From: an uncultured Gammaproteobacteria bacterium
GTDB taxonomy: Bacteria; Patescibacteriota; Patescibacteriia; Magasanikbacterales; GWA2-37-8
Assembly (NCBI GenBank): GCA_964641245.1
Contig: CAZXML010000001.1
Coordinates: 45,065-109,064, forward strand
Reading direction: 5' to 3'
Length of the DNA stretch: 64,000 bases
Shown here: piece after piece, positions 13,743 to 31,736 of the stretch
How the letters are laid out: every line of letters starts with the position of its first letter
Position numbering within the stretch: the first letter of the stretch is position 1
The notes under the pieces: generated by a model
Seen by the model: the letters and a program-made list of their open reading frames with translations, nothing else
Database searches by the model: none
Told to the model about the DNA's origin: nothing
Translations under genes and position numbers: made by a program

Positions 13743-14660
13743 ATGTCCATTATCGGTCACAAAAAAGTCATTTCTTTTTTTGATAAAGTGATAGCCAATA
13801 ACGCGCTAGCGCAGTCTTATTGTTTTGTGGGAAGTGATGGGACCGGAAAAAAAACAACCGCCAGATATCTGGCGGCGCAGGTGCTTAAGGTGTCGGACAA
13901 ACAACTGGATACGCATCCTGATTTTTATTTTATCTCCAGGCAAGTAGATGAAAAAACGGAAAAATTAAAAAAAGACATCAGCGCTTTGCAGGCCAGGCAA
14001 ATAAAAGAAAAATTGGGCCGTAAATCCTGGTTTGGCGGGTATCAGGTAATAATAATAGACGAAGCCGAATTGTTAAACGAAGAATCGGGGAATGCCTTGT
14101 TAAAAAATTTGGAAGAAGCCGGCGGGCAGAGAGTCTTTTTTTTATTAACATCGGACGACAGCGCATTACTACCCACCATCCGCTCCCGCTGTCAGATGTT
14201 TTATTTTTCTTTGGTTAATGAAAATGAAATCGAAGCCGGCCTTATAAAATTAGGTTACAGCCAAGCGTTATCCGCCGAATCAGCCAAAATATCCTGGGGC
14301 AGGCCCGGGCGCGCCATAATGCTGGCCGGTAGCGAAGAATCAAGAAAAAATTTTAACGCCGAAATAGAACGCTGGCAAAAAATAGAAAATGCCCCGTTTT
14401 ATCAAAAAATAAAAGCGGTTGAAGATTTATTCAATGAAAAGGTGGATAACCTTCGCACCAGTGAAAAAATATCCAACGCCTTAGAAACCTGGACCGTATT
14501 GTGGAGAGCCCGGATTTTGGATACAATGAATGCAGGAGGCGGAGGCGCTTCATTATCGCAAATGGCCTCGCTGATAGATAGTTTTAAAAAAGCGCAAATT
14601 TTATTATCCCAAAACATGAACCCGCGTTTGGTTGTTGAAGAGATATTATTAAAAATTTGA
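13743..14660 (+). CDS. holB: DNA polymerase III delta-prime subunit (clamp-loader AAA+)
   Basis: P-loop-like GSDGTGKKTTA, Walker B IIIDEAELL, and a sensor SRC motif (TIRSRCQ). Confidence 0.75.
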   Translation: MSIIGHKKVISFFDKVIANNALAQSYCFVGSDGTGKKTTARYLAAQVLKVSDKQLDTHPDFYFISRQVDEKTEKLKKDISALQARQIKEKLGRKSWFGGYQVIIIDEAELLNEESGNALLKNLEEAGGQRVFFLLTSDDSALLPTIRSRCQMFYFSLVNENEIEAGLIKLGYSQALSAESAKISWGRPGRAIMLAGSEESRKNFNAEIERWQKIENAPFYQKIKAVEDLFNEKVDNLRTSEKISNALETWTVLWRARILDTMNAGGGGASLSQMASLIDSFKKAQILLSQNMNPRLVVEEILLKI

Positions 14661-14663
14661 TAG

Positions 14664-14745
14664 GTATTAAGTATTATGTATCAAGTATTATGCGGTTGTT
14701 TGTCCGTACGATACTTAATACCTAATACTTAATACGTAATACTTA
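14664..14745. repeat. Family-F AT-rich palindrome (GTATTAAGTATTATG...TACTTAATAC)
   Basis: Long imperfect inverted repeat. A related copy lies at 32037-32123. Confidence 0.6.
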
Positions 14746-14749
14746 TTCT

Positions 14750-15829
14750 ATGTCCAAAAAAATCCATCTCCTGCTCGGCCTATTGTCCGCGCTGGTCCTC
14801 ACCGGCGCCGGCTGTATTCAGTTTACAAATTCCGCGCAGGGGCCAATGGGGGTTTTCCGGTCAGCTGATGCCGGTGAAACCTGGGCGTCAAAATCTGTTT
14901 TGCTTAGCGCGCAGGGAGTAAAAAGCCTGGCCGGAGCCAAAGTTTACAAAATTTTTACCGACCCCGGCGACCCCAAAGCCTTGTATATGGGCACACGCGG
15001 CCAAGGTTTGTATTATAGCTACGATAACGGCGATACCTGGCAGGGCACAGCGGTAATGGCCGGCAAGTACATTTACGCTTTAGCCGTAGACCCGCGCGAT
15101 AAGTGCGTTATTTATGTCAGCGATGGCCAGCATATTTATAAAACATCGGATTGCCAAAGAACTTGGGATTTATTATTCAGCGAAGAGCGAACCACGCAAA
15201 GATTTGTGGCTTTGGCCGTAGATAACAGCGATTCAAAAATAATTTATGGCGCGGAATTGGGCGGAGATATTTTCCGCAGTAAAGACGGCGGGCAAAGCTG
15301 GCGTATTATTAAACGCTTTGGTTTTGAAATGCGCCATTTAGCTGTAGATCCGTTAAGCGCGCACCGTTTGTTTGCCGCCGCGTACAACCAAGGTCTATTC
15401 CGTTCCGATGACGGCGGAGAAACCTGGGTTAGTGCCACCGACGGCTTTCAAAATTTCAACGACAGCTTTACTTTTAACCGTTTTGTCTTAAACCCATCTC
15501 AAAAAGACAGTATATTCTGGATTTCCAAATATGGCATCCTGCGTTCCGACAACGCCGGCGCTTCCTGGACAGATATCAAACTACTCACTCCGCCCGGCAG
15601 TGTAAATATTTATGGCTTTGCCATCAACCCAAAAAATCCGCTTGAAATGTATTACACCGGCACAATCCTAGGAGATAAAAATGAAAACGTCCGCAGTACT
15701 CTGTACAAATCCGTAGACGGCGGAGTAAACTGGGTCACAAGAAAACTCCCGTCTAACACCATACCGGTAGATATGCTTACCAGCCGAGAAAACGGCAAGA
15801 TGTTGTTTTTAGGATTCACGACGTTGTAA
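14750..15829 (+). CDS. BNR/Asp-box repeat beta-propeller lipoprotein
   Basis: Lipobox LTGAGC after a signal peptide. Seven S-x-D-x-G-x-T/S-W repeats (SADAGETW, YDNGDTW, SKDGGQSW, SDDGGETW, SDNAGASW, SVDGGVNW). Confidence 0.7.
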   Translation: MSKKIHLLLGLLSALVLTGAGCIQFTNSAQGPMGVFRSADAGETWASKSVLLSAQGVKSLAGAKVYKIFTDPGDPKALYMGTRGQGLYYSYDNGDTWQGTAVMAGKYIYALAVDPRDKCVIYVSDGQHIYKTSDCQRTWDLLFSEERTTQRFVALAVDNSDSKIIYGAELGGDIFRSKDGGQSWRIIKRFGFEMRHLAVDPLSAHRLFAAAYNQGLFRSDDGGETWVSATDGFQNFNDSFTFNRFVLNPSQKDSIFWISKYGILRSDNAGASWTDIKLLTPPGSVNIYGFAINPKNPLEMYYTGTILGDKNENVRSTLYKSVDGGVNWVTRKLPSNTIPVDMLTSRENGKMLFLGFTTL

Positions 15830-15856
15830 AAGTATTAAGTATTAATTTATTTCAAT

Positions 15857-15928
15857 TGTCATTCTGAGCATAGCGAAGAATCCCTCTCGTTTATGTGTAA
15901 GGGATCCTTCACTTCGTTCAGGATGACA
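15857..15928. repeat. Family-A miniature palindromic element (variant)
   Basis: TGTCATTCTGAGCATAGCGAAGAATCCCTC...GGGATCCTTCACTTCGTTCAGGATGACA. Confidence 0.8.
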
Positions 15929-15938
15929 GAAAAATCGT

Positions 15939-16491: not shown

Positions 16492-17352
16492 ATGCAGCAA
16501 GAACATTTGAAGCGTTTAGCTAAAACTTTAGATGATATCCGGCATCAAAATGGTGTTGAGTCTTGGTATGCGCGAGAGCTGTACCCGCTATTGGGCTATG
16601 TCCGTTGGGAGAACTTTGAAACCGCTATAAACAGAGCAAAAGACTCGTGTCTGAAGACCGGCGCAAATGTTGAAGATCATTTTCGTGAGGTCACGAAAAC
16701 GATAGAAATGCCTAAGGGGGCAAGCAAAGAAGTGGTAGATATCAAACTTACCCGATACGCCTGCTATTTGGTTACACTCAACGGAGATCCCAAAAAAGAA
16801 GCCATTGCGTTTGCCCAGGCGTATTTTGTCACCCAGACCAGAACTGTTGAATTATTACAACAACGAATGGCCGAGCTGGAAAGAATTGACGCCAGAGAAA
16901 AATTAAAAATTACTGAAAAGGAGTTTAGCGATATGGCGTTTAGCAGAGGTGTTGATAGTAAGGGTATTGGAGAAATACGCTCTAAGGGCGATAAAGCTCT
17001 TTTTGGCGGAAGAACAACCGACGAAATGAAGCAAAAATTAGGGGTTCAACTCAAGAAGCCTCTGGCGGATTATTTGCCGAATGTAACACTGAAAGCAAAA
17101 GATTTAGCCACCGCGATGACTATAGAAAAAACGAGGCAGAATAATCTTTCGGGAAAAAATCAGATACGGGATGAGCACGTTAATAATAATAGAAATGTCC
17201 GCGGCGCCTTAACAAAAACCGGTATTTTCCCGGAGAGTTTGCCGGTCGCGGAAGACATAAAGAAAATTGAAGCCAGACATCGGAAAGAAACAAAAGCCTT
17301 GCAAAAAAAACAGCGCGATGAGTTAGGCAGGGCAGCGAAAAAGTTGGCTTAA
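16492..17352 (+). CDS. DinD / Bro-N-like DNA-damage-inducible protein D family protein
   Basis: The N-terminal ~120 aa carry WYARELYPLLGY..WENF and LTRYACYLV.LNGDP motifs, recalled from DinD-type proteins. The C-terminus is charged and coiled. Confidence 0.45.
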   Translation: MQQEHLKRLAKTLDDIRHQNGVESWYARELYPLLGYVRWENFETAINRAKDSCLKTGANVEDHFREVTKTIEMPKGASKEVVDIKLTRYACYLVTLNGDPKKEAIAFAQAYFVTQTRTVELLQQRMAELERIDAREKLKITEKEFSDMAFSRGVDSKGIGEIRSKGDKALFGGRTTDEMKQKLGVQLKKPLADYLPNVTLKAKDLATAMTIEKTRQNNLSGKNQIRDEHVNNNRNVRGALTKTGIFPESLPVAEDIKKIEARHRKETKALQKKQRDELGRAAKKLA

Positions 17353-17433: not shown

Positions 17434-17579
17434 TACTAATAAAAAAAGTCTGGCAGGTAGTTTGTCGTGGGGACTCTTTGCCGTGGGACAAGCCCGTGGC
17501 TGAAGGGAAAATTCCCAGTTGACTCGCTACCGTGCCAGAACGCAGTAGTATATCAGATTTTAAGTATATTGTCAATGTT

Positions 17580-18992
17580 ATGTCAGATAATAACGAAAAA
17601 ATGGACAAAATCATTTCTCTGGCCAAACGACGCGGTTTTGTGTTTCCGGGTTCGGAAATCTATGGCGGTTTGGCTAATAGTTGGGATTATGGGCCGTTGG
17701 GGCATCTGCTTAAGCAAAACATTAAAAACGCCTGGTGGAAGTTTTTTGTGCAGGAAAGAGGGGATATGGTGCCGTTAGATACGGCCATTATTATGAACCC
17801 AAAGGTTTGGGAGGCGTCCGGGCATTTGCAAAATTTTAGCGATGAACTGGTGGAATGCAAGAAATGCCATCACCGGTTTAGGGCCGACCATTTACTGGAA
17901 GCCGAAAGCGCCAAGCCGGGTTACGACAAAGAAGCCCCTAGAGTTCTGCCACCGCCCGCGGGCGGGGTGCCGCCTCATGGCGGCAAATTAAAATGCCCTG
18001 ATTGCGACGGCGGGCTTACTGAACCAAAACAATTCAATTTAATGTTTAAAACCTATTTGGGAGTAAACGAAGATACTTCCACCACGGCCTATTTGCGTCC
18101 GGAAACCGCGGCCGGTATGTTTGTTAATTTCAAAAATATTTTAAATGTTACCCGACGCCGTTTGCCTTTTGGTATTGCCCAAATCGGCAAAAATTTCCGC
18201 AACGAAATCACGCCGGGAAATTTTATTTTCCGCACCCGTGAATTCGAAATCGGGGAGTTTGAATATTTTATCAACCCAAAAGACTGGGAAAAAGTTTTTG
18301 AAATGTGGTTGAAAGAAATAAAACGCTGGTGGCAGGATGTTATGCAAATAGACATGGACAATCTGGTCTGGCACGAAATTCCGGAAGGCGAACGCGCTCA
18401 CTACAGCAAACGCACGGTAGATATAGAATACAAATATCCGTTTGGCGTTAAAGAACTGCACGGCATTGCCTACCGCACGGATTTTGATTTATCCCGCCAC
18501 GAAACCGTCAGCGGTCAGGATATGCATTACACCGATTTAGAAACAAACGAAAAATTCATTCCGCATGTAATAGAACCGACTTTTGGCATCGACCGTATGC
18601 TGTTGGTGTGTTTGCTGGAGGCGTATCACGAAGAAGCGGCTCCGACCACTGTTGAGGGAGAATCCGAAGCACGTATCGTCATGAAATTCCCGAAACACCT
18701 CGCTCCAATTCAGGTTGCCGTGTTGCCGTTATCCAAAAAAGAAGAATTATCCAATGTTGCCAAAGATTTAGCAGACAGTTTGCGCAAAGATTTTTCTGTG
18801 GAATATGACGAAACCCAAAGCATCGGCAAACGCTATCGCCGGCAAGATGAAATCGGTACACCGTATTGTATAACAGTAGATTTTGAATCGTTAGAGGACA
18901 AAAAAGTGACAGTGAGGGATAGGGATACGATGGAACAAGAAAGGGTTGAGATGGTGGGGTTAGGGGAGTACTTGAGAAATAAATTTATTTAG
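17580..18992 (+). CDS. glyQS: Glycyl-tRNA synthetase (class II, alpha2 type) carrying a 13-aa in-frame hairpin-element insertion
   Basis: LAKRRGFVFPGSEIYGGL...WDYGPLG, motif 2/3 region and the anticodon-binding C-terminus are present. The start is probably the ATG at 17580 or 17601. The insertion LPPPAGGVPPHGG maps to nt 17946-17984. Confidence 0.85.
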   Translation: MSDNNEKMDKIISLAKRRGFVFPGSEIYGGLANSWDYGPLGHLLKQNIKNAWWKFFVQERGDMVPLDTAIIMNPKVWEASGHLQNFSDELVECKKCHHRFRADHLLEAESAKPGYDKEAPRVLPPPAGGVPPHGGKLKCPDCDGGLTEPKQFNLMFKTYLGVNEDTSTTAYLRPETAAGMFVNFKNILNVTRRRLPFGIAQIGKNFRNEITPGNFIFRTREFEIGEFEYFINPKDWEKVFEMWLKEIKRWWQDVMQIDMDNLVWHEIPEGERAHYSKRTVDIEYKYPFGVKELHGIAYRTDFDLSRHETVSGQDMHYTDLETNEKFIPHVIEPTFGIDRMLLVCLLEAYHEEAAPTTVEGESEARIVMKFPKHLAPIQVAVLPLSKKEELSNVAKDLADSLRKDFSVEYDETQSIGKRYRRQDEIGTPYCITVDFESLEDKKVTVRDRDTMEQERVEMVGLGEYLRNKFI

Positions 18993-19003
18993 CGTTTTTT
19001 AAC

Positions 19004-19087
19004 TGTCATTCTGAGCAAAGCGAAGAATCTCTGTCTGGTTGGTAAAAACAATACTGACAGAGATCCTTCACTGCGTTCAGGATGACA
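19004..19087. repeat. Family-A miniature palindromic element
   Basis: Canonical copy. It overlaps the annotated ORF start, so the real peptidase start is downstream. Confidence 0.85.
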
Positions 19088-19099
19088 ATAATAAAGTGT

Positions 19100-20383
19100 A
19101 TGCACAAAATTTCAAAGTTAAAAAACGGCATCAATCTTATCAAAATTCCTTTAAAAGGAAGCAAAGCCCTCACCGTCATGGCCATGTTTCCGGTTGGTTC
19201 GCGTTATGAAGACAAAAAACTTTCCGGCGCTTCGCATTTTGTGGAACACATGATGTTTAAGGGCACCAAAAAACGCCCCACTCATTTAGAAATTTCCCGC
19301 GAACTGGATTCCTTGGGCGCCGAATACAACGCCTTCACTTCCAAAGATTATACCGGTTATTATGTAAAAACCGGAGAAGTTAATACCGAAAAAGCTTTTG
19401 ACTGGCTGGCCGATATTATTTTTAATTCCAAAATGGACGCGGAGGAAATCGCCAAAGAAAAAGGTGTGATTGTGGAAGAATTACGGATGTATGAAGACAA
19501 TCCGTTGATGGCTGTAGATACTTTGTTTGAAAAAGCCATGTTTGGCGATCATCCGCTGGGCTGGGATGTGGGCGGTACCCCGGAAACCGTAAACGGTTTA
19601 AGCCGGGCTGATTTGTGGAATTATTATCAAAATTATTATTTACCCAGCAACATGGTTTTAATCGTGGCCGGCAATCTTAATGAAAAAAAACTGGCAAAAT
19701 CATTAAAACTTTTTGCGGCAGACAGGGCAAAAGATAGAAAGCATGATTTAAAAGCAAATTTTACCAAGTTTGTCTGGCCAAAAACCATTTTACCTTTGGA
19801 AAACAGAGTGGTAGTCTCCGAAAAAAAACTGGACCAGGCGCAGGTAATTCTTGGCTTTCCCGGGCTACATTATAATGACCCCGACCGTTTTGCCGCTTCG
19901 GTGTTATTCAATATTTTAGGCGGAGGCATGAGTTCCAGATTATTTGTGGAAGTGCGCGAAAAACGCGGCTTGGCCTATATGGTCAATGCCGGCGCCGGTT
20001 CATTCCGCGATGTCGGAGTGGCTAGTATTCAAGCCGGTTTGGATCCTTCCCGGCTAGCCGACGCTCTTAAAGTTATAAAAGACGAATTAATAAAAATAAC
20101 AAAAGAACCGGTTTCAGCTAAAGAATTATTGGATTCAAAAAATAATATTGCCGGACGAACCGAACTGGCCATGGAAGATTCCAGCGCGCAAGCTCAATGG
20201 TTTGCCAAACAATTTTGGTTTGCCAACAAAATAGAATCATACGACGAAGTGGTAAAACAAATTAAGCGCGTGACGGTCGCGGATGTAAAAAAGCTGGCCA
20301 AAAAATTATTTGATTTAAATCAAATGCGCGTGGCCGTAATCGGCCCGATGAGCAGAGAAAAAGTTTTGGATTTACTAAAGTAA
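19100..20383 (+). CDS. M16 (pitrilysin/insulinase) family zinc peptidase
   Basis: Inverted zinc motif HFVEHMMFKGT (HxxEH). About 430 aa with a two-domain M16 architecture. Confidence 0.75.
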   Translation: MHKISKLKNGINLIKIPLKGSKALTVMAMFPVGSRYEDKKLSGASHFVEHMMFKGTKKRPTHLEISRELDSLGAEYNAFTSKDYTGYYVKTGEVNTEKAFDWLADIIFNSKMDAEEIAKEKGVIVEELRMYEDNPLMAVDTLFEKAMFGDHPLGWDVGGTPETVNGLSRADLWNYYQNYYLPSNMVLIVAGNLNEKKLAKSLKLFAADRAKDRKHDLKANFTKFVWPKTILPLENRVVVSEKKLDQAQVILGFPGLHYNDPDRFAASVLFNILGGGMSSRLFVEVREKRGLAYMVNAGAGSFRDVGVASIQAGLDPSRLADALKVIKDELIKITKEPVSAKELLDSKNNIAGRTELAMEDSSAQAQWFAKQFWFANKIESYDEVVKQIKRVTVADVKKLAKKLFDLNQMRVAVIGPMSREKVLDLLK

Positions 20384-20393
20384 CCTATATTTC

Positions 20394-20524
20394 TGTCATC
20401 CCCCCGACCCATTAATTGTCATTCTGAGCAAAGCGAAGAATCTCTGTCCGTTCGGCGATTGAGACAGAGATCCTTCACTGCGTTCAGGATGACAGTTGGC
20501 GCAAGACTCGCTCGGAATGACAAA
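20394..20524. repeat. Cluster of a TGTCATCC fragment, a family-A element and a partial GAATGACA terminus
   Basis: CTGTCATCCCCCCGACC, then the full A element 20417-20494, then CTCGGAATGACA. Confidence 0.75.
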
Positions 20525-20535
20525 CGCACAAACAT

Positions 20536-21288
20536 ATGAATAATAAAAAAATCTACCTATTCGCCAACTGGAAAATGTACCTGGATTACGATGAAAGTAA
20601 TATTTTAGCGAACGCTATTGCTGATAAGAAAAAAATTATTCCAAAATCCGTAAAAATGGCAATTTTCCCAAGCGCTTTGTCGCTTTATCCTGTGGGGCAG
20701 GTTTTGCATGATGCCGGCATTAGTGTTGGCGCGCAAAATACATATTGGTTAGACAAAGGTGGGTACACCGGTGAAGTGTCAGCCGTCATGTACAACGAAG
20801 CCGGATGTGAGTATGCTTTAACTGGTCATTCCGAACGCAGGCACTTGTTTCACGAAACCAACGATGAGGTGCGTAAAAAAGTAGAAGCAATTTTATCTGC
20901 GGGATTAACTCCGGTTATTTGCGTTGGCGAAACTGAAAAAGAACGAAAAGAAAATAAATCCGACGAGGCCATTGAAATTCAAATCAGAGCCGCCTTTCAC
21001 AATATTGTCTGGCCAAAGGAACGGGAATTAATTGTGGCCTATGAACCGGTTTGGGCTATTGGCACCGGAGAAAATTGCGATCCGATTGAAGCCGAACGGA
21101 TGCATGAACTGATCAAAAAACAAATTATCGCGTTAACCGGCATCACTCCCGTTATTTTATATGGAGGCAGTATCAATCCCAAAAATATTGCCGGATATTT
21201 AAAAAATCCGAACATAAACGGCGTATTGGTCGGTAGCGCGTCGGCTAATTATGAAAGCTGGATGGAAATTATATCTAATAGTTTTTAA
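20536..21288 (+). CDS. tpiA: Triosephosphate isomerase
   Basis: FANWKM, GHSERR, AYEPVWAIGTG and YGGS motifs. Confidence 0.9.
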   Translation: MNNKKIYLFANWKMYLDYDESNILANAIADKKKIIPKSVKMAIFPSALSLYPVGQVLHDAGISVGAQNTYWLDKGGYTGEVSAVMYNEAGCEYALTGHSERRHLFHETNDEVRKKVEAILSAGLTPVICVGETEKERKENKSDEAIEIQIRAAFHNIVWPKERELIVAYEPVWAIGTGENCDPIEAERMHELIKKQIIALTGITPVILYGGSINPKNIAGYLKNPNINGVLVGSASANYESWMEIISNSF

Positions 21289-21289
21289 T

Positions 21290-21435
21290 TGTCATTCTGA
21301 GCAAAGCGAAGAATCTCTGTCCGCATATTGTCATTCCCGCCCGAGAGCGGGAATCCAGACAATTCAACCGGACACTGGATTCCCAATCAAGTTGGGAATG
21401 ACAGACAGAGATCCTTCACTGCGTTCAGGATGACA
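21290..21435. repeat. Nested elements: a family-D palindrome (TGTCATTCCCGC...GGGAATGACA, 21339-21404) inserted inside a family-A element
   Basis: The A left half is at 21290-21328 and the A right half at 21405-21435. They are interrupted by a complete D-type element. Confidence 0.8.
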
Positions 21436-21471
21436 ATCTAATTCAAGTTTGTTCCGATTAAAAGTAGTAGT

Positions 21472-22377
21472 ATGCTAAACGCATTATTTATAATAATCAT
21501 CATTGCCGCCCTCGCCGTTATTTTGTTTTTGGTTATCCGCAAATTTCCTCATCTGGCAAATTTGGATATTCAAAATCTGGACGAAGAAAAAATTTACCGC
21601 AAGAAAAAAGAAATTATAAATAAGCGCATAGAAAAAAGTAGCGGCCTTTTAAAAGAAAAAATTATCAGAAGTCTTGTGCCGGTCAGCAAATTGTGGGGAA
21701 GGCTTCAGCTCCAATTTAGAATATATGTGGGAAAAATAGAAAGACTTCTTCATCATGAGCAGGTGCTTAAAACAAAACAAAAAAAGACTGTTGTCGGCAA
21801 CGAAGAGAGCGGACAAAAATTAACTTCCTTAATTCAGGAAGGCGAACAGCAGTTAAAAGCGGGCAATTACGATAAAGCCGAAGAAGTTTTTATCTCCGCC
21901 ATAAAAATTGACCCGAAATCTGCGGTCGCTTATAGAGGATTAGGCGATACCTATTTGGCCAAAAATTCTCTGGAGGAAGCCAGACAGACTTATAAATTTT
22001 TAATCAGAATGGAACCGGACGACGATAATGTGTTGGTCAAATTGGCGGAAATAGCGGAAAGCCATGGCGATCTGGAAGAGGCGATACATCATTACCAGCA
22101 GGCGGTTTTGGTCAATGATTCATTTTCCCCGCGTTTTTATCACTTGGCCGAACTGCTGGTAAAGGTGGGCCAACCGCAGGTGGCGGTAGAATCTATTCTG
22201 CAGGCCGTAGAACTGGAACCCCAAAATCCAAAGTACCTTGACTTATTGATAGAAATTGCTATAATATGCGGCAATAAAGAGTTGGCGCTTAAAGGTTACG
22301 GAGAATTACGCTTAGTCAACCCCGACAATCAAAAATTACCCAGTTTCAAAGATAGAATTTATCGAATAGGCGTATAA
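21472..22377 (+). CDS. TPR-repeat protein with an N-terminal TM helix
   Basis: N-terminal hydrophobic segment. Repeated A..Y...G/A..Y...G TPR-like helices (AYRGLGDTYLAK, ARQTYKFLIRMEPDD). Confidence 0.6.
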   Translation: MLNALFIIIIIAALAVILFLVIRKFPHLANLDIQNLDEEKIYRKKKEIINKRIEKSSGLLKEKIIRSLVPVSKLWGRLQLQFRIYVGKIERLLHHEQVLKTKQKKTVVGNEESGQKLTSLIQEGEQQLKAGNYDKAEEVFISAIKIDPKSAVAYRGLGDTYLAKNSLEEARQTYKFLIRMEPDDDNVLVKLAEIAESHGDLEEAIHHYQQAVLVNDSFSPRFYHLAELLVKVGQPQVAVESILQAVELEPQNPKYLDLLIEIAIICGNKELALKGYGELRLVNPDNQKLPSFKDRIYRIGV

Positions 22378-22389
22378 GAAAAACGAAAT

Positions 22390-22424
22390 GCCGTCTTAGC
22401 TCAGCTGGTAGAGCAACAGTTTTG
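22390..22424 (+). pseudogene. 5' fragment (~35 nt) of a tRNA-Thr, fused to a double-hairpin element
   Basis: GCCGTCTTAGCTCAGCTGGTAGAGCAACAGTTTTG equals the acceptor, D-arm and half the anticodon stem of the downstream tRNA. It is followed by CCACCGCCCGCGGGCGGGGTGCCGCC, which also occurs in glyS. Confidence 0.6.
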
Positions 22425-22492
22425 CCACCGCCCGCGGGCGGGGTGCCGCCACGGGGCGGCATAAACTTCCAATGATTAAATAACAATTAAAC

Positions 22493-22568
22493 GCCGCCTT
22501 AGCTCAGCTGGTAGAGCAACACTTTTGTAAAGTGAAGGTCCTGGGTTCGAATCCCTGAGGCGGCTCCA
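22493..22568 (+). tRNA. tRNA-Thr (anticodon UGU), with CCA encoded
   Basis: Hand-folded cloverleaf. Acceptor GCCGCCT/AGGCGGC, D-arm GCTC-AGCTGGTA-GAGC, anticodon loop TTTGTAA, T-loop TTCGAAT. There is one U-U mismatch in the T-stem. Confidence 0.7.
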
Positions 22569-22632
22569 GATTAGGGGTTGTTCTTTGAAAATAAATAAGG
22601 TATAATGTAAGTGGCTATACGCCATTTAGTTT

Positions 22633-23241
22633 ATGCCTAATAAAAAAATTACAAAAGAACAGGAAGCCTTAGTAAAGAGTTTGTATTCTAGCGGAAAAAT
22701 GGGGTTGGAAATTGCCACTAAGTTAGAAATTTCTCTTAAACAAGTTTACGGTTCTCTCCGCCGTCAACAAATACCACGCAAGAGCTTACGTGAGCAAAAT
22801 AAAGTTCTTTTTGAGAGAAAGCCATTGTCGTTTCGTTTTAAGGAAAAACTCACAACAAAGGAACGTGAACTCCTGATTGCGGCGATTATGCTGTATTATG
22901 GCGAGGGCGCAAAAACATCTGTTACGGTTGATTTTGCGAATTCAGATGGTCGGACAGTTAAATTATTTTTAAAGTTTTTAAGGAAAATTTGTCGTATAGA
23001 CGAGAAGCGATTGCGGTTTTATTTGTACTGTTTTTCAGATCAAGATTCTAATTCTTTGATTAGTTATTGGTCGTCTCAATTGAAAGCTGAACGAAATCAA
23101 TTCACAAAACCATACGTGCGTTCAACTTTCAACAGAGGCAGTAGAGCAATGCCTTACGGAGTAATTCATGTGCGATATAGTGATAAGAAATTATTAGACA
23201 AAATTCTATCACTATGTAATAGTTTGGTCGTGTCGTTATAA
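22633..23241 (+). CDS. Hypothetical HTH protein, possibly a degenerate LAGLIDADG-like homing endonuclease
   Basis: N-terminal HTH (GLEIATKLEISLKQVYGSL). LIAAIMLYYGEGAK loosely resembles a LAGLIDADG motif. It lies between a tRNA and the tmRNA candidate. Confidence 0.3.
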   Translation: MPNKKITKEQEALVKSLYSSGKMGLEIATKLEISLKQVYGSLRRQQIPRKSLREQNKVLFERKPLSFRFKEKLTTKERELLIAAIMLYYGEGAKTSVTVDFANSDGRTVKLFLKFLRKICRIDEKRLRFYLYCFSDQDSNSLISYWSSQLKAERNQFTKPYVRSTFNRGSRAMPYGVIHVRYSDKKLLDKILSLCNSLVVSL

Positions 23242-23244
23242 AAT

Positions 23245-23527
23245 GGGTGGATTCCTGAGCGGTCAAAAGGGGCAGACTGTAGTAAAATGCAGCTCTTGAG
23301 GGAAACTTCAGGATGAACTTTCTGGGATAACGGTGAAAGCTAAGGCAGGTGCTATGCCAATACCGTGGGAACCCCGATATTTGGTCGGGGGCGCCGTAGA
23401 GACTAGATACCAGAGTGCCTAAAGTCAATGTGACTAAGGCAAAGATATAGTCCACGCCAGAAGGAAACTTTTGGATTAGTGAAATCTGCTGGCTCCGCCT
23501 TCGTAGGTTCGAATCCTACTCCACCCA
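23245..23527 (+). ncRNA. ssrA: Probable tmRNA (ssrA); the tRNA-like domain is clear but the tag ORF is not resolved
   Basis: The 5' GGGTGGA pairs with the 3' TCCACCC. A perfect T-arm GTAGG-TTCGAAT-CCTAC and a discriminator A follow. About 283 nt, with no ORF. Confidence 0.5.
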
Positions 23528-23614
23528 CACGGCTTCACTGCGTTACGCCGTGTAAACCACAGCTTCTACTGTGTTACACTATGTAAACTCAGTCTTGCCT
23601 AGGTACATAAAATT

Positions 23615-23881
23615 ATGCAACACTTTGTATATATCTTGAAATGTTGCGATGAGAGTTTTTATACAGGTTTAAGCAACAATCTTAAAAGAAGATTGAAAGA
23701 GCATGAGGATGGTAAAAGCGTTAATACAAAAAATTTGAGACCAGTTAAGTTAGTATTTTATTGCTGTTTTAAAGATCAGCATTTAGCTGCAGAATTTGAG
23801 CAATACTTAAAATCACATTCAGGAATTGCGTTTAGGAATAAACACTTAGCTACTACTACAAAACGCACAGTGAAGACATAG
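23615..23881 (+). CDS. GIY-YIG nuclease domain protein (UPF0213 / YhbQ-like)
   Basis: FVYILKC.DESFYTGLSNNLKRRLKEHEDGK is the classic GIY-YIG core. 88 aa. Confidence 0.8.
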   Translation: MQHFVYILKCCDESFYTGLSNNLKRRLKEHEDGKSVNTKNLRPVKLVFYCCFKDQHLAAEFEQYLKSHSGIAFRNKHLATTTKRTVKT

Positions 23882-23936
23882 CTTGCACTGGATAGTGTGA
23901 GAAGTAGCTTGCACTGCGTAGCCGTAGCGAAGCAGT

Positions 23937-24009
23937 GCCGTTGTAGCTCAGTTGGTAGAGCATTTCCATGGTAAGGAAAAGGTCTCGGGTTCGAATCCCG
24001 ACAACGGCT
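23937..24009 (+). tRNA. tRNA-Thr (anticodon GGU)
   Basis: Acceptor GCCGTTG/CAACGGC, D-arm GCTC-AGTTGGTA-GAGC, anticodon stem TTTCC/GGAAA with loop ATGGTAA, T-arm TCGGG-TTCGAAT-CCCGA. Confidence 0.75.
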
Positions 24010-24093
24010 CAACGCGTGAATCATGAAGCACGAATCATGAATCATGAACGTTACAAACAATCCCTAATTCTTAATTCGTAATTCATACACAAT

Positions 24094-24276
24094 ATGTCGC
24101 AGGATAATTTGGTGAAAATGGAATGCAAGGAATGTAAACACACGAACTATTTTACCAGCAAGAACAAGAAGGTTTTAAAGAACCGCTTGGAGCTGGAAAA
24201 GTTCTGTAAGTTTTGCCGAAAGCACACCGGTCACAAAGAAACAAAATAGAAATGAAAAAGCCCTGCTCTGAATAGT
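24094..24276 (+). CDS. rpmG: 50S ribosomal protein L33
   Basis: Hand translation gives [49 protein letters not shown]..., the L33 zinc-ribbon signature. It is absent from the supplied ORF track. The rpmG-tRNA-Trp arrangement is common. Confidence 0.7.
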
Positions 24277-24299
24277 TTTCCGGGTGGGGTTTGTTCTTA

Positions 24300-24371
24300 G
24301 GCCTGTAGTTTCAATGGTAAAACAGCGGTCTCCAAAACCGCGGTTCTCGGTTCGAATCCGAGCGGGCCTGC
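24300..24371 (+). tRNA. tRNA-Trp (anticodon CCA)
   Basis: Acceptor AGGCCTG/CGGGCCT, D-arm GTTT-CAATGGTA-AAAC, anticodon stem GCGGT/ACCGC with loop CTCCAAA, T-arm CTCGG-TTCGAAT-CCGAG. Confidence 0.75.
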
Positions 24372-24387
24372 AAAATAAATTCACTTT

Positions 24388-24834
24388 ATGCCGGAAATAG
24401 ATTTCTATCAAATTTCCTTGAAAGTTATTTTAAGGAATAAAAAAGGCGAGGTTTTAATTTTGAAAACACCTGAATATGGAAGTTATTCTGGTTGTTATGA
24501 TTTGCCGGGAGGCCGTATAGATGCAAACGAATTTGATGTTCCGTATGAGCAAATAATGAAACGGGAAATTACAGAGGAAGTGGGGGATATACAATATAAA
24601 TTTAATCCTAAACCGGTTGCGATTGGCCGTCATCTGGTGCATGCCCATCAAAGCAGGCTTAAGCGCGAACTTCATATTCAGTATATATTTTTTGAAGCGG
24701 AATATTTGGGAGGGGATATTTGCGTTAGCCGCGAGCATACAGAATATAAATGGGTGGATATGTCTGCTGAAAAATTAGAAGATTTATTTAAGTCCGGAAT
24801 TTTGGAAGGAATGAAGATGTGTTTCTTGGGTTAA
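24388..24834 (+). CDS. NUDIX hydrolase
   Basis: Nudix box GGRIDANEFDVPYEQIMKREITEEVG (Gx5Ex7REUxEExGU). Confidence 0.8.
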   Translation: MPEIDFYQISLKVILRNKKGEVLILKTPEYGSYSGCYDLPGGRIDANEFDVPYEQIMKREITEEVGDIQYKFNPKPVAIGRHLVHAHQSRLKRELHIQYIFFEAEYLGGDICVSREHTEYKWVDMSAEKLEDLFKSGILEGMKMCFLG

Positions 24835-24983
24835 TTTGGTTTTTTAGCTAATTAAGCCCCAAGTGCGTACCATAACGCCCGGCAAGGCGTGCCCCTTGAC
24901 CAGAAAGGCGCTTTAACGTAATATAGACCATTACAAAAGTCAGGTAATGTGGTACTATATAAATACTTATAATTAATAAGCGT

Positions 24984-25292
24984 ATGTTTAATAAATTATT
25001 CCGTTCGGTCTTTCCAGCGCGTAATCCGGCTGATATAGCGCGAGAATATAAAATCCCATCACAAATCCGTTTTAAGTTCCAGACTAAAGATGGTTGGATT
25101 ATTGCAACCTCTGAAAATTTGCCTGGTTTTATTACTGAAGCACGCAATCCGCAAGAATTGTTAGAAATGATTAACGACGGCATTTTAACGTACTTTGATG
25201 TTCCGCGGCGCGTAGGCGATGTTGTCCATAATCAAATGACACTTGACGGCTATGGGACTGTCTCGTTGGATAAACACTTGCAACCAGCTTAA
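24984..25292 (+). CDS. hicB: HicB-like antitoxin (UPF0150)
   Basis: DGWIIATSENLPGFITEARNPQELLEMINDGILTYFDV matches the HicB N-domain pattern. It is adjacent to HicA. Confidence 0.6.
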   Translation: MFNKLFRSVFPARNPADIAREYKIPSQIRFKFQTKDGWIIATSENLPGFITEARNPQELLEMINDGILTYFDVPRRVGDVVHNQMTLDGYGTVSLDKHLQPA

Positions 25293-25297
25293 ACACT

Positions 25298-25537
25298 ATG
25301 GGCGAAAATACCTTCAATCGCCGACAGTGTGTGCGGGCATTAAATAAGCTAAATTTTGTTCTTGATAACAAACGTTCTGGCAAGCACGATAAATACAAGG
25401 CACCGTTTGCCAATGCCAATCCGCCGTTTATTATGGTGCCTCGTCATAATGACATTCACTGTCAGGACGATATTGTAAAGGAATTGGAAAGAATGGGCGG
25501 GAAGGAACTGGTCGAAAAATTTAAGCAGTATTTGTAA
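25298..25537 (+). CDS. hicA: HicA-like mRNA interferase toxin
   Basis: RSGKHDKY...PPFIMVPRHNDI matches the HicA (YcfA) G-S/K-H...VP.H pattern. 79 aa. Confidence 0.6.
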   Translation: MGENTFNRRQCVRALNKLNFVLDNKRSGKHDKYKAPFANANPPFIMVPRHNDIHCQDDIVKELERMGGKELVEKFKQYL

Positions 25538-25676
25538 AAGCCTTTGTAAAGAGGTTTTTATTGTTTAGTTAAATTTTAATATACAGTGAGTAGTGCTAGG
25601 GAGTAAAGTCGGTATATAAACATACCGATTTGTCTTCATAAAAATAGTTCTAACGTCCTGTACGATGCCCTGCTAA

Positions 25677-25700
25677 GACCGGTTAAAACTGGTCTTTTTT
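25677..25700 (+). terminator. Rho-independent terminator
   Basis: GACCGGTTAAAACTGGTC hairpin followed by a T6 run. Confidence 0.6.
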
Positions 25701-25792
25701 GTATGTGAGTTGTTGGTCGCGAGCAGTAGATAAAAATAAACGGTCACCGAAATCACTACTCTAAATTCGGTAGGTTTCGGTAACATTTATTT

Positions 25793-26185
25793 TTGTCTAC
25801 AACGAGGGAGTTTTTTGTTATTAGACGATATGGTATAATATGTTATATGTCTATCATCATCCTACAACGTTTGTTATTGGACGCGGTACTGGATATTTTT
25901 TATTTCCCTATTTGGTGGTACACCAAAGGCGCGGCGCATGCTTTGCGCTGGTGTTTTAATTTATTAAAAACAGGAAACAAAAATCTGGCTCCGGGTTTGT
26001 GGCTGGCAAATTTATTTGTGCCCATGTTTGGGCAATTTGACTGGCAGGGGCGGATTGTCAGTTTTTTAATGCGTTTGGCGCAAATTTTTGCCCGTACGGT
26101 AGCGCTGGCCGTTTGGGTTAGTTTGTGTTTTGTTTTATTTTTAGGCTGGCTGGCATTGCCGGCGCTTGTTGCGTATGCAATTTAA
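25793..26185 (+). CDS. Small polytopic membrane protein (the start is probably downstream)
   Basis: Hydrophobic helices. Its 3' end overlaps the clpC-like ORF in another frame. Confidence 0.4.
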   Translation: MSTTREFFVIRRYGIICYMSIIILQRLLLDAVLDIFYFPIWWYTKGAAHALRWCFNLLKTGNKNLAPGLWLANLFVPMFGQFDWQGRIVSFLMRLAQIFARTVALAVWVSLCFVLFLGWLALPALVAYAI

Positions 26186-28940
26186 AAAAGCTGAACCATT
26201 AAATTTAATTTCCTGCGACCGTTGCCACGCAACCGGTTATATTGGGTTTGGCAAATGCCCGGAATGCAAGGGAATGGAAATGGGAATCAGCAAAAGGGGT
26301 AAATGGCTTTATTGGGATTATCCGCTTACCCGTTATAATTTATCTTTGCAAAGCGGACGGCGGATTTTAAACCGTATTCGTTTAATTACGGCGCTGGTTT
26401 TTTGGTTAACTTGTTGGATTTGGGTTGGAGTCACTGCCTACAAGGCAGATTTAGGCATTGTTTTTCGTGATCCCATTCATTGGCGTAATTTTATTTTAAC
26501 TTTGGGAAACAGCACCACCATTTTATTTTGGATGGGCGTAATCAGTTTATTTTATTTTTGGTACAGGATTATCCGGCAAAAAGAATTGGTGGGCGCGGTG
26601 GAAACTTTTAATTATGATGAAAAAAATAAAAAAGATTTAGTTGTTGGTTCCTGGGTTGACGCAAAAAAATTACCAAAGCGAAAAAAACATAATATCGCCG
26701 ACGCTTTTACCGAAGAGGCTTTATCCGCGCTGGCCAAGGCGTATCGTTTTGCTGATAAGAATGGCGCCAAAGAAGCAACTCCCGAACATTTATTTTATAC
26801 CCTGCTATCATTCAACAGAATCAGTAATATTTTTATCAGACTAGGCATTCCGGCTTCGTCACTACAAAAAGAATTGGTACCGTTGTTGCCAACCCACCCC
26901 AACCCCGCCCGAGCGGGGAATCGAGAAATGCCAACAGTGTCCAAAGATTTTCAACAAATTATTTTTCAGGCTTACGAATCGGCCTATAGCGCGCACCAGG
27001 ATTACGTTAGCGTCACCGAACTACTTATCATCGCCCTGCAGGAAACTCCGGCCATCGCCAAGGTTTTATTTAATTTTAATATCAGCGAACGTGATTTGGC
27101 AAATGTTATAGAGTGGGCCAGAATGCGCGAAAAACTTCACCGTCAATACCTCAAATTCAAACGGGCGGCCAGTCATCATTCCAAATACGGCATGGACAAA
27201 GCTATGACCGCGCTGGCCACTCCTTATTTAAATAGTTTCAGTTCCGACATTACCATGCTGGCGCATTACGGCCAGTTAAATCAATGCGTGGCCCGCTCCA
27301 AAGAAATAGAAGAAATTTATCAGGTTATAGACAGTGGTGAACACAATGTATTGCTGGTGGGGGAACATGGCGTCGGTAAAAAAACAATTGTGGAAGGCAT
27401 TGCGCAAAGCATGATAGAAGACGACGTGCCGGCCAGACTAAAAGACAAACGTTTGGTGCGTTTAAGTGTGTCGGCGCTGCTCGCCGGTACCAGTCCGGCC
27501 GGAGCGGTAGAAAGATTGCGGAATATAATGAACGAAATGTCGCGGGCGCGCAATGTAATTTTATTTATTCATAATTTACACGAACTGGTTGGCGTGGCGG
27601 CCGGCGAGAGCGGGAGTTTAGATATCGCGGACACCCTCACGGAATTTTTAGACAGTGATAAATTTTTAACCATCGCCACCACCACCACCGAAGATTTTTC
27701 GGAACATATTTCCAACTCTTCAATTAAAAGCGTGTTTACAAAAATAGATATTGCCGAGATGACCGAAGATCAGGCCATACAGGTTTTGGAATCGCGGGCG
27801 GGCGCGCTGGAGTATAAACAAAATGTATTTTTTTCTTACGATGCCGTGGCCAAAGCCGTGGAATACGCCGTTAAATTTATTCACGAATCATTTTTGCCAG
27901 GAAACGCTTTGGAACTTCTTACCGAATCCGCCACTTATACTCACAATAAAAAAGGCGGTAATTCCATCGTCACCAAAGAAGAAGTGGCGGCGGTAGTGAC
28001 CGAAAAAACCAAAATTCCTTTGTCCGCTATTTCCAGTGATGAATCCAGCAAACTCTTACTTTTAGAAGAAGAAATGCATGAACGCGTGATTGGCCAGGAT
28101 GAGGGCGTAACCGCCGTCGCCAATGCTTTGCGCCGGGCCCGCGCCGAAATGCGTTCGTCCAAACGGCCCATCGCCAACTTTTTATTTTTGGGCCCCACCG
28201 GCGTAGGCAAAACCGAACTTGCCAAAACCATCGCCCAAGTGTACTTTGGAGGTGAAAACAAAATGATTCGCCTAGACATGAGCGAGTATCAGGACAAGAG
28301 CAGTATATATAGGTTGATTGGCATGCCCGGAGCCAAAGGAACCGGCATACTTACCGAGGCTGTCCGCCGGAGTCCGTTTTCTCTTTTATTGCTGGATGAA
28401 ATAGAAAAAGCCGACCATGATGTGCTGAATTTATTTCTGCAGGTTATGGATGAAGGCCGGCTTAGCGACAGCGCCGGACACGTATTTGATTTTACCAATG
28501 TAATTTTAATCGCCACATCCAATGCCGGTACGGCCTATGTGCAAGAACAAAATAAAAAAGGCGTGGCGCACGAAGTTTTGCTGGACAGTCTTTTGCACGG
28601 AGAATTGAAAGAATATTTCCGCCCGGAATTTTTAAATCGTTTTGACGGAATTATTTTGTTCAACGCCTTAACCCAGCCGGATATTAAAAAAATCGCCGGT
28701 TTAATGTTTGGCGCTATTGCCAAAAGCATGGAACAAAAAGGCGTGCAGTTGACGGCCACAGACGATGCCCTGGAATTTTTGGCCACCGCCGGTTTTGATC
28801 CGGAATTTGGCGCTCGGCCGATGCGCCGGGTTTTGCAGGAAAAAGTAGAAAATAAACTGGCAGAATTATTTTTACAGGGAAAATTAAAAAGAGGCAGTAT
28901 GGTGACGGTCGGGGCGGGAGGAGAGATAAATGTAAATTAA
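26166..28940 (+). CDS. ClpC/ClpA-like double AAA+ unfoldase with an N-terminal zinc ribbon and two TM helices
   Basis: CDRCHATGYIGFGKCPECKG zinc ribbon, then TM segments, then Clp_N. D1 Walker A LLVGEHGVGKKT. D2 Walker A FLGPTGVGKTELAK. Sensor-2 GARPMRRV. Confidence 0.8.
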   Translation: MLRMQFKKAEPLNLISCDRCHATGYIGFGKCPECKGMEMGISKRGKWLYWDYPLTRYNLSLQSGRRILNRIRLITALVFWLTCWIWVGVTAYKADLGIVFRDPIHWRNFILTLGNSTTILFWMGVISLFYFWYRIIRQKELVGAVETFNYDEKNKKDLVVGSWVDAKKLPKRKKHNIADAFTEEALSALAKAYRFADKNGAKEATPEHLFYTLLSFNRISNIFIRLGIPASSLQKELVPLLPTHPNPARAGNREMPTVSKDFQQIIFQAYESAYSAHQDYVSVTELLIIALQETPAIAKVLFNFNISERDLANVIEWARMREKLHRQYLKFKRAASHHSKYGMDKAMTALATPYLNSFSSDITMLAHYGQLNQCVARSKEIEEIYQVIDSGEHNVLLVGEHGVGKKTIVEGIAQSMIEDDVPARLKDKRLVRLSVSALLAGTSPAGAVERLRNIMNEMSRARNVILFIHNLHELVGVAAGESGSLDIADTLTEFLDSDKFLTIATTTTEDFSEHISNSSIKSVFTKIDIAEMTEDQAIQVLESRAGALEYKQNVFFSYDAVAKAVEYAVKFIHESFLPGNALELLTESATYTHNKKGGNSIVTKEEVAAVVTEKTKIPLSAISSDESSKLLLLEEEMHERVIGQDEGVTAVANALRRARAEMRSSKRPIANFLFLGPTGVGKTELAKTIAQVYFGGENKMIRLDMSEYQDKSSIYRLIGMPGAKGTGILTEAVRRSPFSLLLLDEIEKADHDVLNLFLQVMDEGRLSDSAGHVFDFTNVILIATSNAGTAYVQEQNKKGVAHEVLLDSLLHGELKEYFRPEFLNRFDGIILFNALTQPDIKKIAGLMFGAIAKSMEQKGVQLTATDDALEFLATAGFDPEFGARPMRRVLQEKVENKLAELFLQGKLKRGSMVTVGAGGEINVN

Positions 28941-28945
28941 AATTT

Positions 28946-29947: not shown

Positions 29948-30066
29948 TGGTGAAAATGGTGAAGATGAACAAATTGTTCACGCGGAGCGATTAACCAACT
30001 ACAACAATAGATCATTTGCACCACCTTCATCAAGCGTAACGATTTACCAATTTAATCAATTTCAGT

Positions 30067-30537
30067 ATGCGCGACCCAAAACCCTTTAAAACCTGGCATT
30101 TAGTTTTTATAATCATAGTCATCCTTATTTCCATCGGTTATAAAATCTACGGTTCTTTGTGGACAAAGGCGACTATAAAAATCGGTGGGCAAGAAATCCG
30201 CGTTTTGGTGGCGGACACCTATAACCACCGTCTAAAAGGCTGGAGCGACCGGAAAGATATGGGCCAATACGGCGGTATGCTTTTTGTGTTTCCCGATAGC
30301 GCCCAGCACGCCATGGTAATGCGTGATATGCATTTTCCATTGGATATAATTTGGCTGGACGGAACTAAAATCATAGACATCGCCCCAAATATACCCCTGG
30401 AACCCGGACTGGCCGAATCGCAATTAACAATCTACCGATCCCGCGCCGCCTCTACCTTGGTTTTGGAAGTATCAGCCGGTTTTATGGAAAGAACCGGGTT
30501 GAAAATAGGGGATACGGTGGAAATAATACAGGATTAG
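30067..30537 (+). CDS. DUF192 (COG1430) domain protein
   Basis: N-terminal TM helix, then the conserved DUF192 core VFPDSAQHAMVMRDMHFPLDIIWLDG...LEVSAGF. Confidence 0.65.
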   Translation: MRDPKPFKTWHLVFIIIVILISIGYKIYGSLWTKATIKIGGQEIRVLVADTYNHRLKGWSDRKDMGQYGGMLFVFPDSAQHAMVMRDMHFPLDIIWLDGTKIIDIAPNIPLEPGLAESQLTIYRSRAASTLVLEVSAGFMERTGLKIGDTVEIIQD

Positions 30538-30661
30538 GCGCGGGGTTGACATATTTTGAGTTTTAATATATACTAAGCGCACTAACAAATTAGCAATAAA
30601 CAATTAGCAACTAACAATCGATTTGTTGTTTGTTAATTGTTATTTGTTAATTAATCAAATT

Positions 30662-30967: not shown

Positions 30968-31003
30968 TATAAAAAAATCAGTCCGTAAGGGCTGATTTTT
31001 TAT
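30968..31003. terminator. Bidirectional rho-independent terminator between rplU (+) and recR (-)
   Basis: AAAAAATCAGTCCGTAAGGGCTGATTTTTTATTTT. Confidence 0.7.
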
Positions 31004-31599: not shown

Positions 31600-31609
31600 A
31601 GCGTTGTTT

Positions 31610-31735: not shown

Positions 31736-31736
31736 A

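Follow-up and report, generated by a model that had tools for sequence, protein, structure and literature searches.

How does one short GC-rich sequence come to lie both in frame within glyS, the gene for glycine--tRNA ligase, and inside a broken copy of a tRNA-Thr gene further along the same strand? The question is raised by a 64-kb stretch of a Patescibacteria contig (CAZXML010000001.1, positions 45,065 to 109,064; hereafter the window), which carries at these two places a tandem hairpin that we call element E. We find E to be a hairpin pair of 35-37 nt. Among partial copies of three tRNA species it occupies one oriented position in the anticodon loop, and a protein gene has it at a single look-alike site. 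One of the partial tRNA copies is of a foreign allele type, and there is polymorphism both in presence or absence and in copy number. We hold with high confidence that E is real, copyable, and specific in site and orientation. The account that we rather favor is that E is a small copyable tandem-hairpin element of Patescibacteria with its home in tRNA loops, that its glyS copy is secondary, and that its copying involves a nuclease and repair step. For that last step, which we infer by analogy, our confidence is moderate to low.

Both copies in the window lie on the + strand and share an exact 28-mer, TGCCACCGCCCGCGGGCGGGGTGCCGCC (17947-17974 and 22423-22450), after which each runs through four variable bases into GGCGGC. 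A first-pass annotation of the window had proposed a tiny GC-rich palindromic element of 38 nt at these places. The sequences are where it put them and the element is real, recurring in other genomes; only its length has to be amended, as comparison with other loci sets the bounds of E at 37 nt (CCACC...GGCGGCA) and assigns the preceding TG to the host site. The two copies are identical at 34 of 37 positions, and all three differences fall in the 4-nt loop of the second hairpin (TCAT in glyS, ACGG in the tRNA copy). No further match to the 28-mer was found in the window with up to 3 mismatches allowed, and the chance expectation is 0, with matches in 0 of 100 dinucleotide-preserving shuffles. 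A covariance model run over the window with filters off scored the copies at 67 and 60 bits and its next match at 12.8. The window has a G+C content of 43%, and the two copies are its most extreme GC spikes. An independent JGI metagenome assembly (L038), 99.97% identical over 14,690 nt (window 17560-32249), has both copies unaltered, which rules out an assembly artefact. With two copies in 64 kb, a genome-wide family is unsupported for the window.

The doubt raised in the first-pass annotation, that the motif might occur nowhere else, is removed by its presence at other Patescibacteria loci. E-bearing contigs came from NCBI, JGI, ENA and Logan assemblies, and the whole sample amounts to about 13 distinct loci. 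JGI metagenome contigs were scanned with a pattern in which the stems were fixed but any bases could stand at the apex of hairpin 1 and in loop 2; at the eight loci found, E lies within a tRNA anticodon loop every time (8/8), between ...TG and TAAA.... The hosts are partial copies of tRNA-Thr(UGU), tRNA-Tyr(GUA) and tRNA-Ser(UGA) that are not functional, each beside an intact gene. Every junction reads YTG, E, WAAA, and every copy of E is in the sense orientation. Deleting E gives a perfect anticodon loop at every tRNA locus, with no base duplicated. The element sits at position 35/36 in the tRNA-Thr and tRNA-Ser copies and at 34/35 in those of tRNA-Tyr.

The tRNA-Thr(UGU) loci (L012, L013, L014 and the window) have a common order: the 5' half of the tRNA, E, TAAAC with a few anticodon-stem bases, a spacer of about 30 nt and the intact gene. 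The flanks of E at these loci match that genome's own tRNA, as in L012, where ACGGTTTTG, E and TAAACCG stand beside an intact gene with the same stem. In the window, E directly follows a 35-nt 5' fragment of tRNA-Thr, as had been noticed in the first pass, and 22390-22467 reads as a single 5' pseudo-copy interrupted by E (Table 1). The fragment agrees base for base with the 5' half that the relatives L008 and L011 have in their intact tRNA-Thr; within the window, the intact gene departs from the partial one by substitutions on both strands (C5/G68, C30/G40), with the pairing preserved. The comparison of relatives that the first-pass annotation had called for gave the same arrangement in L008, L010 and L013. 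Upstream of tRNA-Thr(UGU) in L008 (= L010, L013) come a 5' fragment, a double hairpin whose first stem is shorter than that of the window and whose loops are different, TAAACTGTAG, a spacer and the intact gene. The tRNA clusters of L011, L022, L024 and L025 are empty, with no fragment at all. A tRNA-sized unit of 71 nt, in which the 3' side of hairpin 2 in the window (GGGGCGGC) pairs with the GCCGTCT at the fragment's 5' end, was considered and rejected as a general feature, since fragments of tRNA-Tyr and tRNA-Ser begin with GGGT... or GGAA..., which makes such pairing impossible.

At the tRNA-Tyr(GUA) loci (L015, L016/L018, L017 and L019), tRNA positions 1 to about 43-50 carry E at CTG^TAAA. 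This partial copy equals the intact gene apart from E, and it is followed directly by an open reading frame (ORF) of 71-81 aa for a GIY-YIG nuclease and then by the intact tRNA-Tyr. Adjoining the E-bearing cluster of L016, at 930-1095, are three tandem 62-nt repeats, each with the hairpin ATCCCGCTGAAGCGGGAT. By an independent route, homologs of one GIY-YIG protein were searched, and all four of those looked up on long contigs adjoin tRNA genes with partial duplicates. In L035, a tRNA-Tyr locus, a 5' part with E, the GIY-YIG gene and the intact tRNA-Tyr are followed by GGGCAGACTG, a partly deleted E and a complete 3' half. The tRNA-Tyr locus L036 is built as L035 is, except that it has two tandem downstream units, each made up of 3' half, trailer, ACTG and E; L037, from another sample and with the same protein, is as L036 except for one 101-nt unit instead of two. 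The upstream partial copy of L036 starts GGGCAGG and the intact gene GGGTGGA, so the upstream block is of a different tRNA-Tyr allele.

The tRNA-Ser(UGA) loci L031-L034 have a diverged E (CCACCGCCTTTGGACGGGGTCCCGCTCAAGCGGGA) at CTTG^AAAAC, carried by both 5' and 3' fragments, which flank the GIY-YIG gene and the intact tRNA-Ser. Downstream of the E-bearing 3' copy in L031 (2470-2560) the final 16 nt of the tRNA (ATCTCACCGCTTCCGC) recur once more, which implies nested partial duplications of both ends of the tRNA gene. L026 (tRNA-Ser(GCU)) has only 14-nt partial copies, one of them with a single hairpin, TCCCGCAGAGCGGGA, and L016 and L036 also have partial copies whose D-loops carry single E-like hairpins. 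The first-pass annotation had tied E to a duplication of the tRNA 5' half through insertion or recombination; the link holds generally across loci, and the part that went beyond the evidence is E as its cause.

As a single strand, E forms two adjacent 7-bp hairpins, the first with a bulged A and the second closed by T-A. Folding energies of the RNA range from -16 to -27 kcal/mol, 1.7-2.6 standard deviations below shuffles, and for the tRNA copy in the window an alternative long hairpin is slightly more stable. Across 11 distinct copies, 98% of cells pair, against 44-61% when the partners are slid. The stems are conserved and the loops hypervariable; L035 and L036, which were reached through the protein, have the same stems and different loops. 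A two-sided change occurs only in hairpin 2 of the Ser variant, at two pairs (TGCCGCC/GGCGGCA to TCCCGC/GCGGGA). We do not take this as proof of the structure, two pairs in one variant being weak evidence, and the scarcity of covariation is partly due to the fixed stems of the search pattern.

E is probably linked to small GIY-YIG cassettes. At every Tyr and Ser locus the E-bearing partial copy is separated from the intact tRNA by a small UPF0213-type GIY-YIG gene. With empty clusters in L022, L024 and L025, these loci combine presence/absence polymorphism with an adjoining nuclease, as a homing-endonuclease cassette would; the Thr loci do not. An uninterrupted site is still present in the intact tRNA alongside. 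The only such gene in the window, of UPF0213 type, is 30-36% identical to the GIY-YIG genes between partial and intact tRNAs elsewhere, and relatives of this type in the PDB are 1ZG2 and 1YWL. Between the tRNA-Tyr and the GIY-YIG gene of the window (23529-23614) we also observed two tandem units of about 30 nt, CACGGC...GCCGTGTAAAC and CACAGC...CTATGTAAAC, each a hairpin followed by TGTAAAC, which echo the TG/TAAAC context of E.

In glyS, E is translated in frame as LPPPAGGVPPHGG, in agreement with the first-pass reading. It sits in the most variable linker of the protein (GlyRS), between the invariant Cys pairs C93/C96 and C139/C142. The sequence affinity of this GlyRS is with Magasanikbacteria/Parcubacteria-like Patescibacteria. 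The 11 extra residues occur in the window protein only and are absent from 27 of 27 aligned homologs (79-92% identical); in the DNA alignment the insert is a clean +33 nt. The closest glyS allele, L020, reads ...AGTATTTCAG/AATTAAAATG where the window reads ...AGAGTTCTG, 37 nt, AATTAAAATG, so that the two agree exactly at the 3' junction, G/AATTAAAATG, and the window is 4 nt short on the 5' side. The insertion site, CTG^AATTA, is a look-alike of the tRNA target site. An AlphaFold model was unusable for placing the insert (mean pLDDT 50). The gene order RRF, glyS, M16 peptidase, TIM, TPR protein, tRNA cluster is kept in relatives, and L008 (= L010, L013) has an E-type copy at tRNA-Thr and a glyS without the insert. 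The glyS copy is therefore the derived one, specific to this strain, and the tRNA-linked type the widespread one, because tRNA-linked copies span many lineages and no glyS copy was seen in any other strain. The derived state of the glyS copy was overlooked in the first pass, as were the exact anticodon-loop site, the tRNA-Tyr and tRNA-Ser hosts with their 5' and 3' fragments, and the GIY-YIG gene.

Two further observations concern glyS. In a second variable loop, five GlyRS homologs of different lineages (P0008, P0010, P0043, P0092 and P0105; alignment A1, columns ~430-480) have short insertions such as SAKATAGE, SAEASAAK and SAKASAAEG. Since the 5' arm of E, GCC ACC GCC, could code for A-T-A, hairpins may have been inserted in frame here too. 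Between RRF and glyS, an interval that is different in every relative examined, the window has an ORF of 286 aa (16492-17352, +) with a BRO-N domain (Pfam, 6.6e-10). The BRO-N domain is typical of viruses.

Table 1. Element E and associated features, in window coordinates
Feature	Position	Strand	Remarks
glyS	17580-18992	+	dimeric-type glycine--tRNA ligase, 470 aa (P0001)
Element E, glyS copy	17949-17985	+	CCACCGCC-CGCG-GGCGGGG / TGCCGCC-TCAT-GGCGGCA; in frame within LPPPAGGVPPHGGK; net +33 nt vs relatives
Promoter-like site TTGACT-16-TATAAT, upstream TG	22238-22265	+	11/12, consensus match only; inside 3' end of TPR gene
5' partial tRNA-Thr(UGU), positions 1-35	22390-22424	+	pseudogene fragment ending ...ACAGTTTTG
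Element E, tRNA copy	22425-22461	+	in anticodon loop of partial tRNA-Thr; loop 2 = ACGG
TAAACT	22462-22467	+	remaining anticodon loop (T36 A37 A38) and start of 3' anticodon-stem strand of the interrupted copy
AT-rich spacer, partial copy to intact gene	22468-22492	+	not conserved between genomes
Intact tRNA-Thr(UGU), functional copy	22493-22568	+	ARAGORN, Rfam
Stand-alone GIY-YIG nuclease gene	23615-23881	+	88 aa, UPF0213 type, Pfam PF01541; only one in window

How E could have reached these sites is suggested by analogy with the phage endonuclease SegB. A GIY-YIG nuclease would break DNA in or near tRNA genes, and recombinational repair of the breaks would leave partial and tandem duplicates of the tRNA genes, as it does for SegB. 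E would then be copied from an existing copy into the broken YTG^WAAA by short-homology templated repair. It would persist only in redundant fragments, because E destroys a tRNA and its insertion into a sole gene would presumably be lethal. By splitting a direct repeat of about 45 nt into about 35 + 10, E, together with the D-loop hairpins, may guard the cassette from recombinational deletion, and this is a possible reason why all loop-containing fragments carry E. The glyS copy would be a rare and recent off-target of the same process, 4.5 kb upstream on the same strand, which could survive because 37 minus 4 nt keeps the frame, brings no stop codon and falls in a tolerant variable linker. 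A bolder proposal, possible though doubtful, is that E and the UPF0213-type GIY-YIG gene form an undescribed mobile system of Patescibacteria that targets tRNA genes. Its nuclease would cut in or close to the anticodon loop, and repair would duplicate part of the gene and so spare the essential tRNA; the hairpin cassette, which would not be an intron, would enter the displaced fragments at YTG^WAAA and make them immune or recombination-proof, and protein genes would receive an occasional in-frame copy.

Several points weigh against copying by nuclease and repair. A strict role for the nuclease is hard to square with the window, whose only GIY-YIG gene lies 1.1 kb downstream, and with three Thr-type loci at which the sequence covered contains no such gene. 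UPF0213 proteins are without a DNA-binding domain, and no enzyme is known to act on E. The motif YTGWAAW occurs 118 times in the window and E at two sites only, so the motif alone does not explain the choice of site. The identity of the two window copies everywhere but in loop 2 makes a recent neutral copy unlikely; E may have come from some other donor copy, the loop may mutate on its own, or the hairpins may be under selection. In glyS, the 9 nt that precede E match the donor flank at 7 of 9 positions and the ancestral glyS minus 4 nt equally well, and co-conversion of the flank was therefore rejected as proof of gene conversion into glyS. Finally, the sample is about 13 distinct loci in all, and nine of these come from a pattern with fixed stems.

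The same data have to be set against other explanations. E could be an ordinary element of the repetitive extragenic palindromic (REP) or miniature inverted-repeat transposable element (MITE) kind, moved by a transposase (for example a hairpin-recognising, single-strand one of the IS200/IS605 or RAYT kind) independently of GIY-YIG, with tRNA fragments serving as safe stem-loop landing sites. A hairpin pair that enters in a single orientation, beside a fixed short sequence, and leaves no target duplication would fit this, as would the related tandem hairpins in intergenic DNA, the Thr-type loci without a GIY-YIG gene and the many other small palindromic repeats in the genome. We nevertheless think it unlikely. 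There are only two copies in 64 kb, every metagenome match lies within a tRNA fragment, no transposase was seen beside any copy, and 37 nt is far below the length of known hairpin-end elements. Among 185,579 species representatives, an exact 23-mer of E found chance matches only (Streptomyces and other high-GC genomes) and none in low-GC genomes, and a scan of viral sequences with it gave nothing. REPs and the bacterial interspersed mosaic elements (BIMEs) built from them are imperfect palindromes of 20-40 nt, often paired and presumably mobile in the form of single-stranded hairpins; the head of a REP is GTAG or CGTC, its copies between genes run to hundreds, and a RAYT gene goes with them. 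E is likewise a short, paired imperfect palindrome within that size range, but it lacks the head, all copies starting CCACC after the host TG, and it lacks the copy number, neither window copy being in plain intergenic DNA; the ORFs around the two window sites include no RAYT gene. As for a MITE, E has no target duplication and only 4-nt inverted ends (TGCC...GGCA), which include host bases.

E could instead be a functional RNA, either a "small intron" of the type remarked on in 2018 (Castelle et al.) or a structured leader of the tRNA or GIY-YIG transcript whose hairpins are selected. The conserved stems and variable loops, the both-strand changes in hairpin 2, the constant sense orientation and the mention of a third intron type in the literature argue for such a role, and E lies directly upstream of the GIY-YIG start codons at the Tyr loci. 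In the window, the partial tRNA and E would be transcribed as a leader of the tRNA-Thr transcript if the promoter-like site is used; E is followed there by ATAAAC without a T run, no terminator-like site was found in 22200-22700, and E does not qualify as an intrinsic terminator. On the other side, every host copy is truncated and stands beside an intact, uninterrupted gene, unlike an intron of a functional tRNA, and in several of these copies the D-loop holds additional insertions. Even when introns of up to 300 nt are permitted, ARAGORN reports the contiguous tRNA-Thr gene alone, so the single intron-containing tRNA across 22390-22568 that the first-pass annotation had kept in view is rejected, and Rfam gives no match on 22390-22470 even at E<=10. 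E is moreover translated in glyS, where removal of 37 nt would shift the frame. Taken together, a functional RNA seems to us quite improbable. An accidental or technical similarity, whether a chance GC-rich match, an assembly chimera or a selected Pro/Gly-rich GlyRS linker later copied to the tRNA locus, could appeal to the presence of only two copies in the window and to the fact that GC-rich palindromes arise by chance in high-GC genomes. It is refuted by the shuffles, by the identical independent assembly (L038), by the recurrence of one loop position in many contigs from four sources of assemblies and by the insert-free glyS of relatives that have the tRNA-linked type, and we give it next to no weight.

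Among known systems, the closest parallels to E are short palindromic selfish DNAs. Rickettsia palindromic elements are about 100-150 nt long, present in many copies per genome, and lie in frame in essential protein genes and in RNA genes. E resembles them as a short palindromic selfish DNA of a small AT-rich bacterial genome that has entered an essential gene in frame, and differs in its 37 nt, its two window copies and its unrelated sequence; we know of no preference of the Rickettsia elements for tRNA anticodon loops and of no nuclease cassette. The GC clusters and double-hairpin elements of mitochondria (yeasts, Allomyces and other fungi) are mobile, occur in many copies, occasionally within coding sequence, and are found near insertion sites of endonuclease genes. 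They share with E the GC-rich (double) hairpins of a few tens of nt in AT-rich genomes, whereas E is bacterial, has a fixed anticodon-loop site and is tied to partial tRNA duplicates. An integrative element with a tRNA attachment site does not fit either: the duplicated part in the window is the 5' half, and among the neighbors examined (the TPR gene upstream and a 202-aa ORF, ORF202, downstream) Pfam gave no integrase family.

Introns in the same loop are known from the same phylum. The group I introns that Patescibacteria carry within their tRNA genes include the unusual position 35/36, reported for tRNA-Asn and tRNA-Asp, which is shared by E in its Thr and Ser copies (PMC13011429). E is unlike these introns in being 37 nt without a group I core or an Rfam core match, in following G rather than U, in its 34/35 position in tRNA-Tyr and in being confined to truncated copies. 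The 2026 survey of Patescibacteria tRNA introns makes no mention of hairpins, insert-bearing fragments or duplications (PMC13011429). SegB is a free-standing phage GIY-YIG endonuclease for which experiments have shown that it cuts within tRNA genes and drives recombination-dependent segmental amplification, including that of tRNA-Tyr (PMC13096335). Its gene, too, stands among tRNA genes, and the tandem segmental duplications to which it gives rise match the partial and tandem tRNA copies at the E loci. SegB differs in coming from a phage, in having a DNA-binding part and in acting without any hairpin insert; the proteins here are cellular catalytic domains of 71-88 aa, and the fragments carry E. 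A full-text literature search found no description of the E arrangement, though it may have been sighted earlier under another name (the "small introns" of Castelle et al. 2018).

The window itself has a group I intron close by. The tRNA-Tyr(GUA) gene at 23245-23527 (+) is interrupted between anticodon positions 35/36 by a group I intron of 201 nt (23281-23481); Rfam matches the intron at 23270-23474 with 50 bits. ARAGORN missed this gene, whose joined exons make a valid 83-nt tRNA-Tyr. A link between E and the intron was rejected, as the tRNA-Tyr is a separate gene and there is no shared sequence. ORF202 (22633-23241, +; also in L011 at 14480-15088) lies between tRNA-Thr(UGU) and this tRNA-Tyr. 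It has no Pfam family and only an N-terminal helix-turn-helix (PHROGs phrog_1303, E = 3e-6), which resembles phage DNA-binding and nuclease-associated proteins; ORF202 may be another mobile gene of the tRNA cluster.

E belongs to a wider class of hairpin repeats, within which it forms a GC-rich subfamily associated with tRNA genes. At other loci the covariance model picked up tandem hairpins that are diverged, in plain intergenic DNA as well as just upstream of a tRNA-Tyr. The window, for its part, is rich in other families of small palindromic repeats. Two 211-nt repeats (91% identical; 52815-53025 and 55282-55492) end in a tandem hairpin, TCCCGCAGCGAGCGGGATCCTCGACTC...GAGTCGGGA, that is distantly related to E, and a DUF3800-V RNA (Rfam, 53.6 bits; 55031-55128, -) adjoins one of them. 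One further kind, composite palindromic repeats that are about 90 nt long (TGTCATTCTGAGCAAAGCGAAGAATC...GATCCTTCACTGCGTTCAGGATGACA), takes up the glyS-M16-TIM-TPR spacers (18993-19081, 20384-20535 and 21289-21471) and occurs also at 1312-1405, 15856-15930, 41492-41556 and 50663-50745. These spacers measure 89, 152 and 183 nt in the window and 4-19 nt in L011, L022 and L024; the lineage of the window has gone through a burst of small-element insertion. Elsewhere, a region of higher G+C, about 49% (3460-7791), holds a unit of at least 300 nt three times over, at a spacing of 2016 nt and with 71-72% identity; the copies are probably repeated domains of one very large protein.

Both Rickettsia and mitochondria have small palindromic selfish elements that survive within essential genes; we found none described in Patescibacteria, and none described with a fixed anticodon-loop position or a link to a small GIY-YIG cassette. 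In the annotation of metagenome-assembled genomes, fragments and inserts of the E type can mislead the calling of tRNA genes. If the link between E and the GIY-YIG cassettes is causal, the widespread UPF0213 proteins of unknown function would gain a role that can be tested, and the litter of gene fragments in the tRNA clusters of reduced genomes would have an explanation. The same process would then also show how essential enzymes can acquire new peptide loops.

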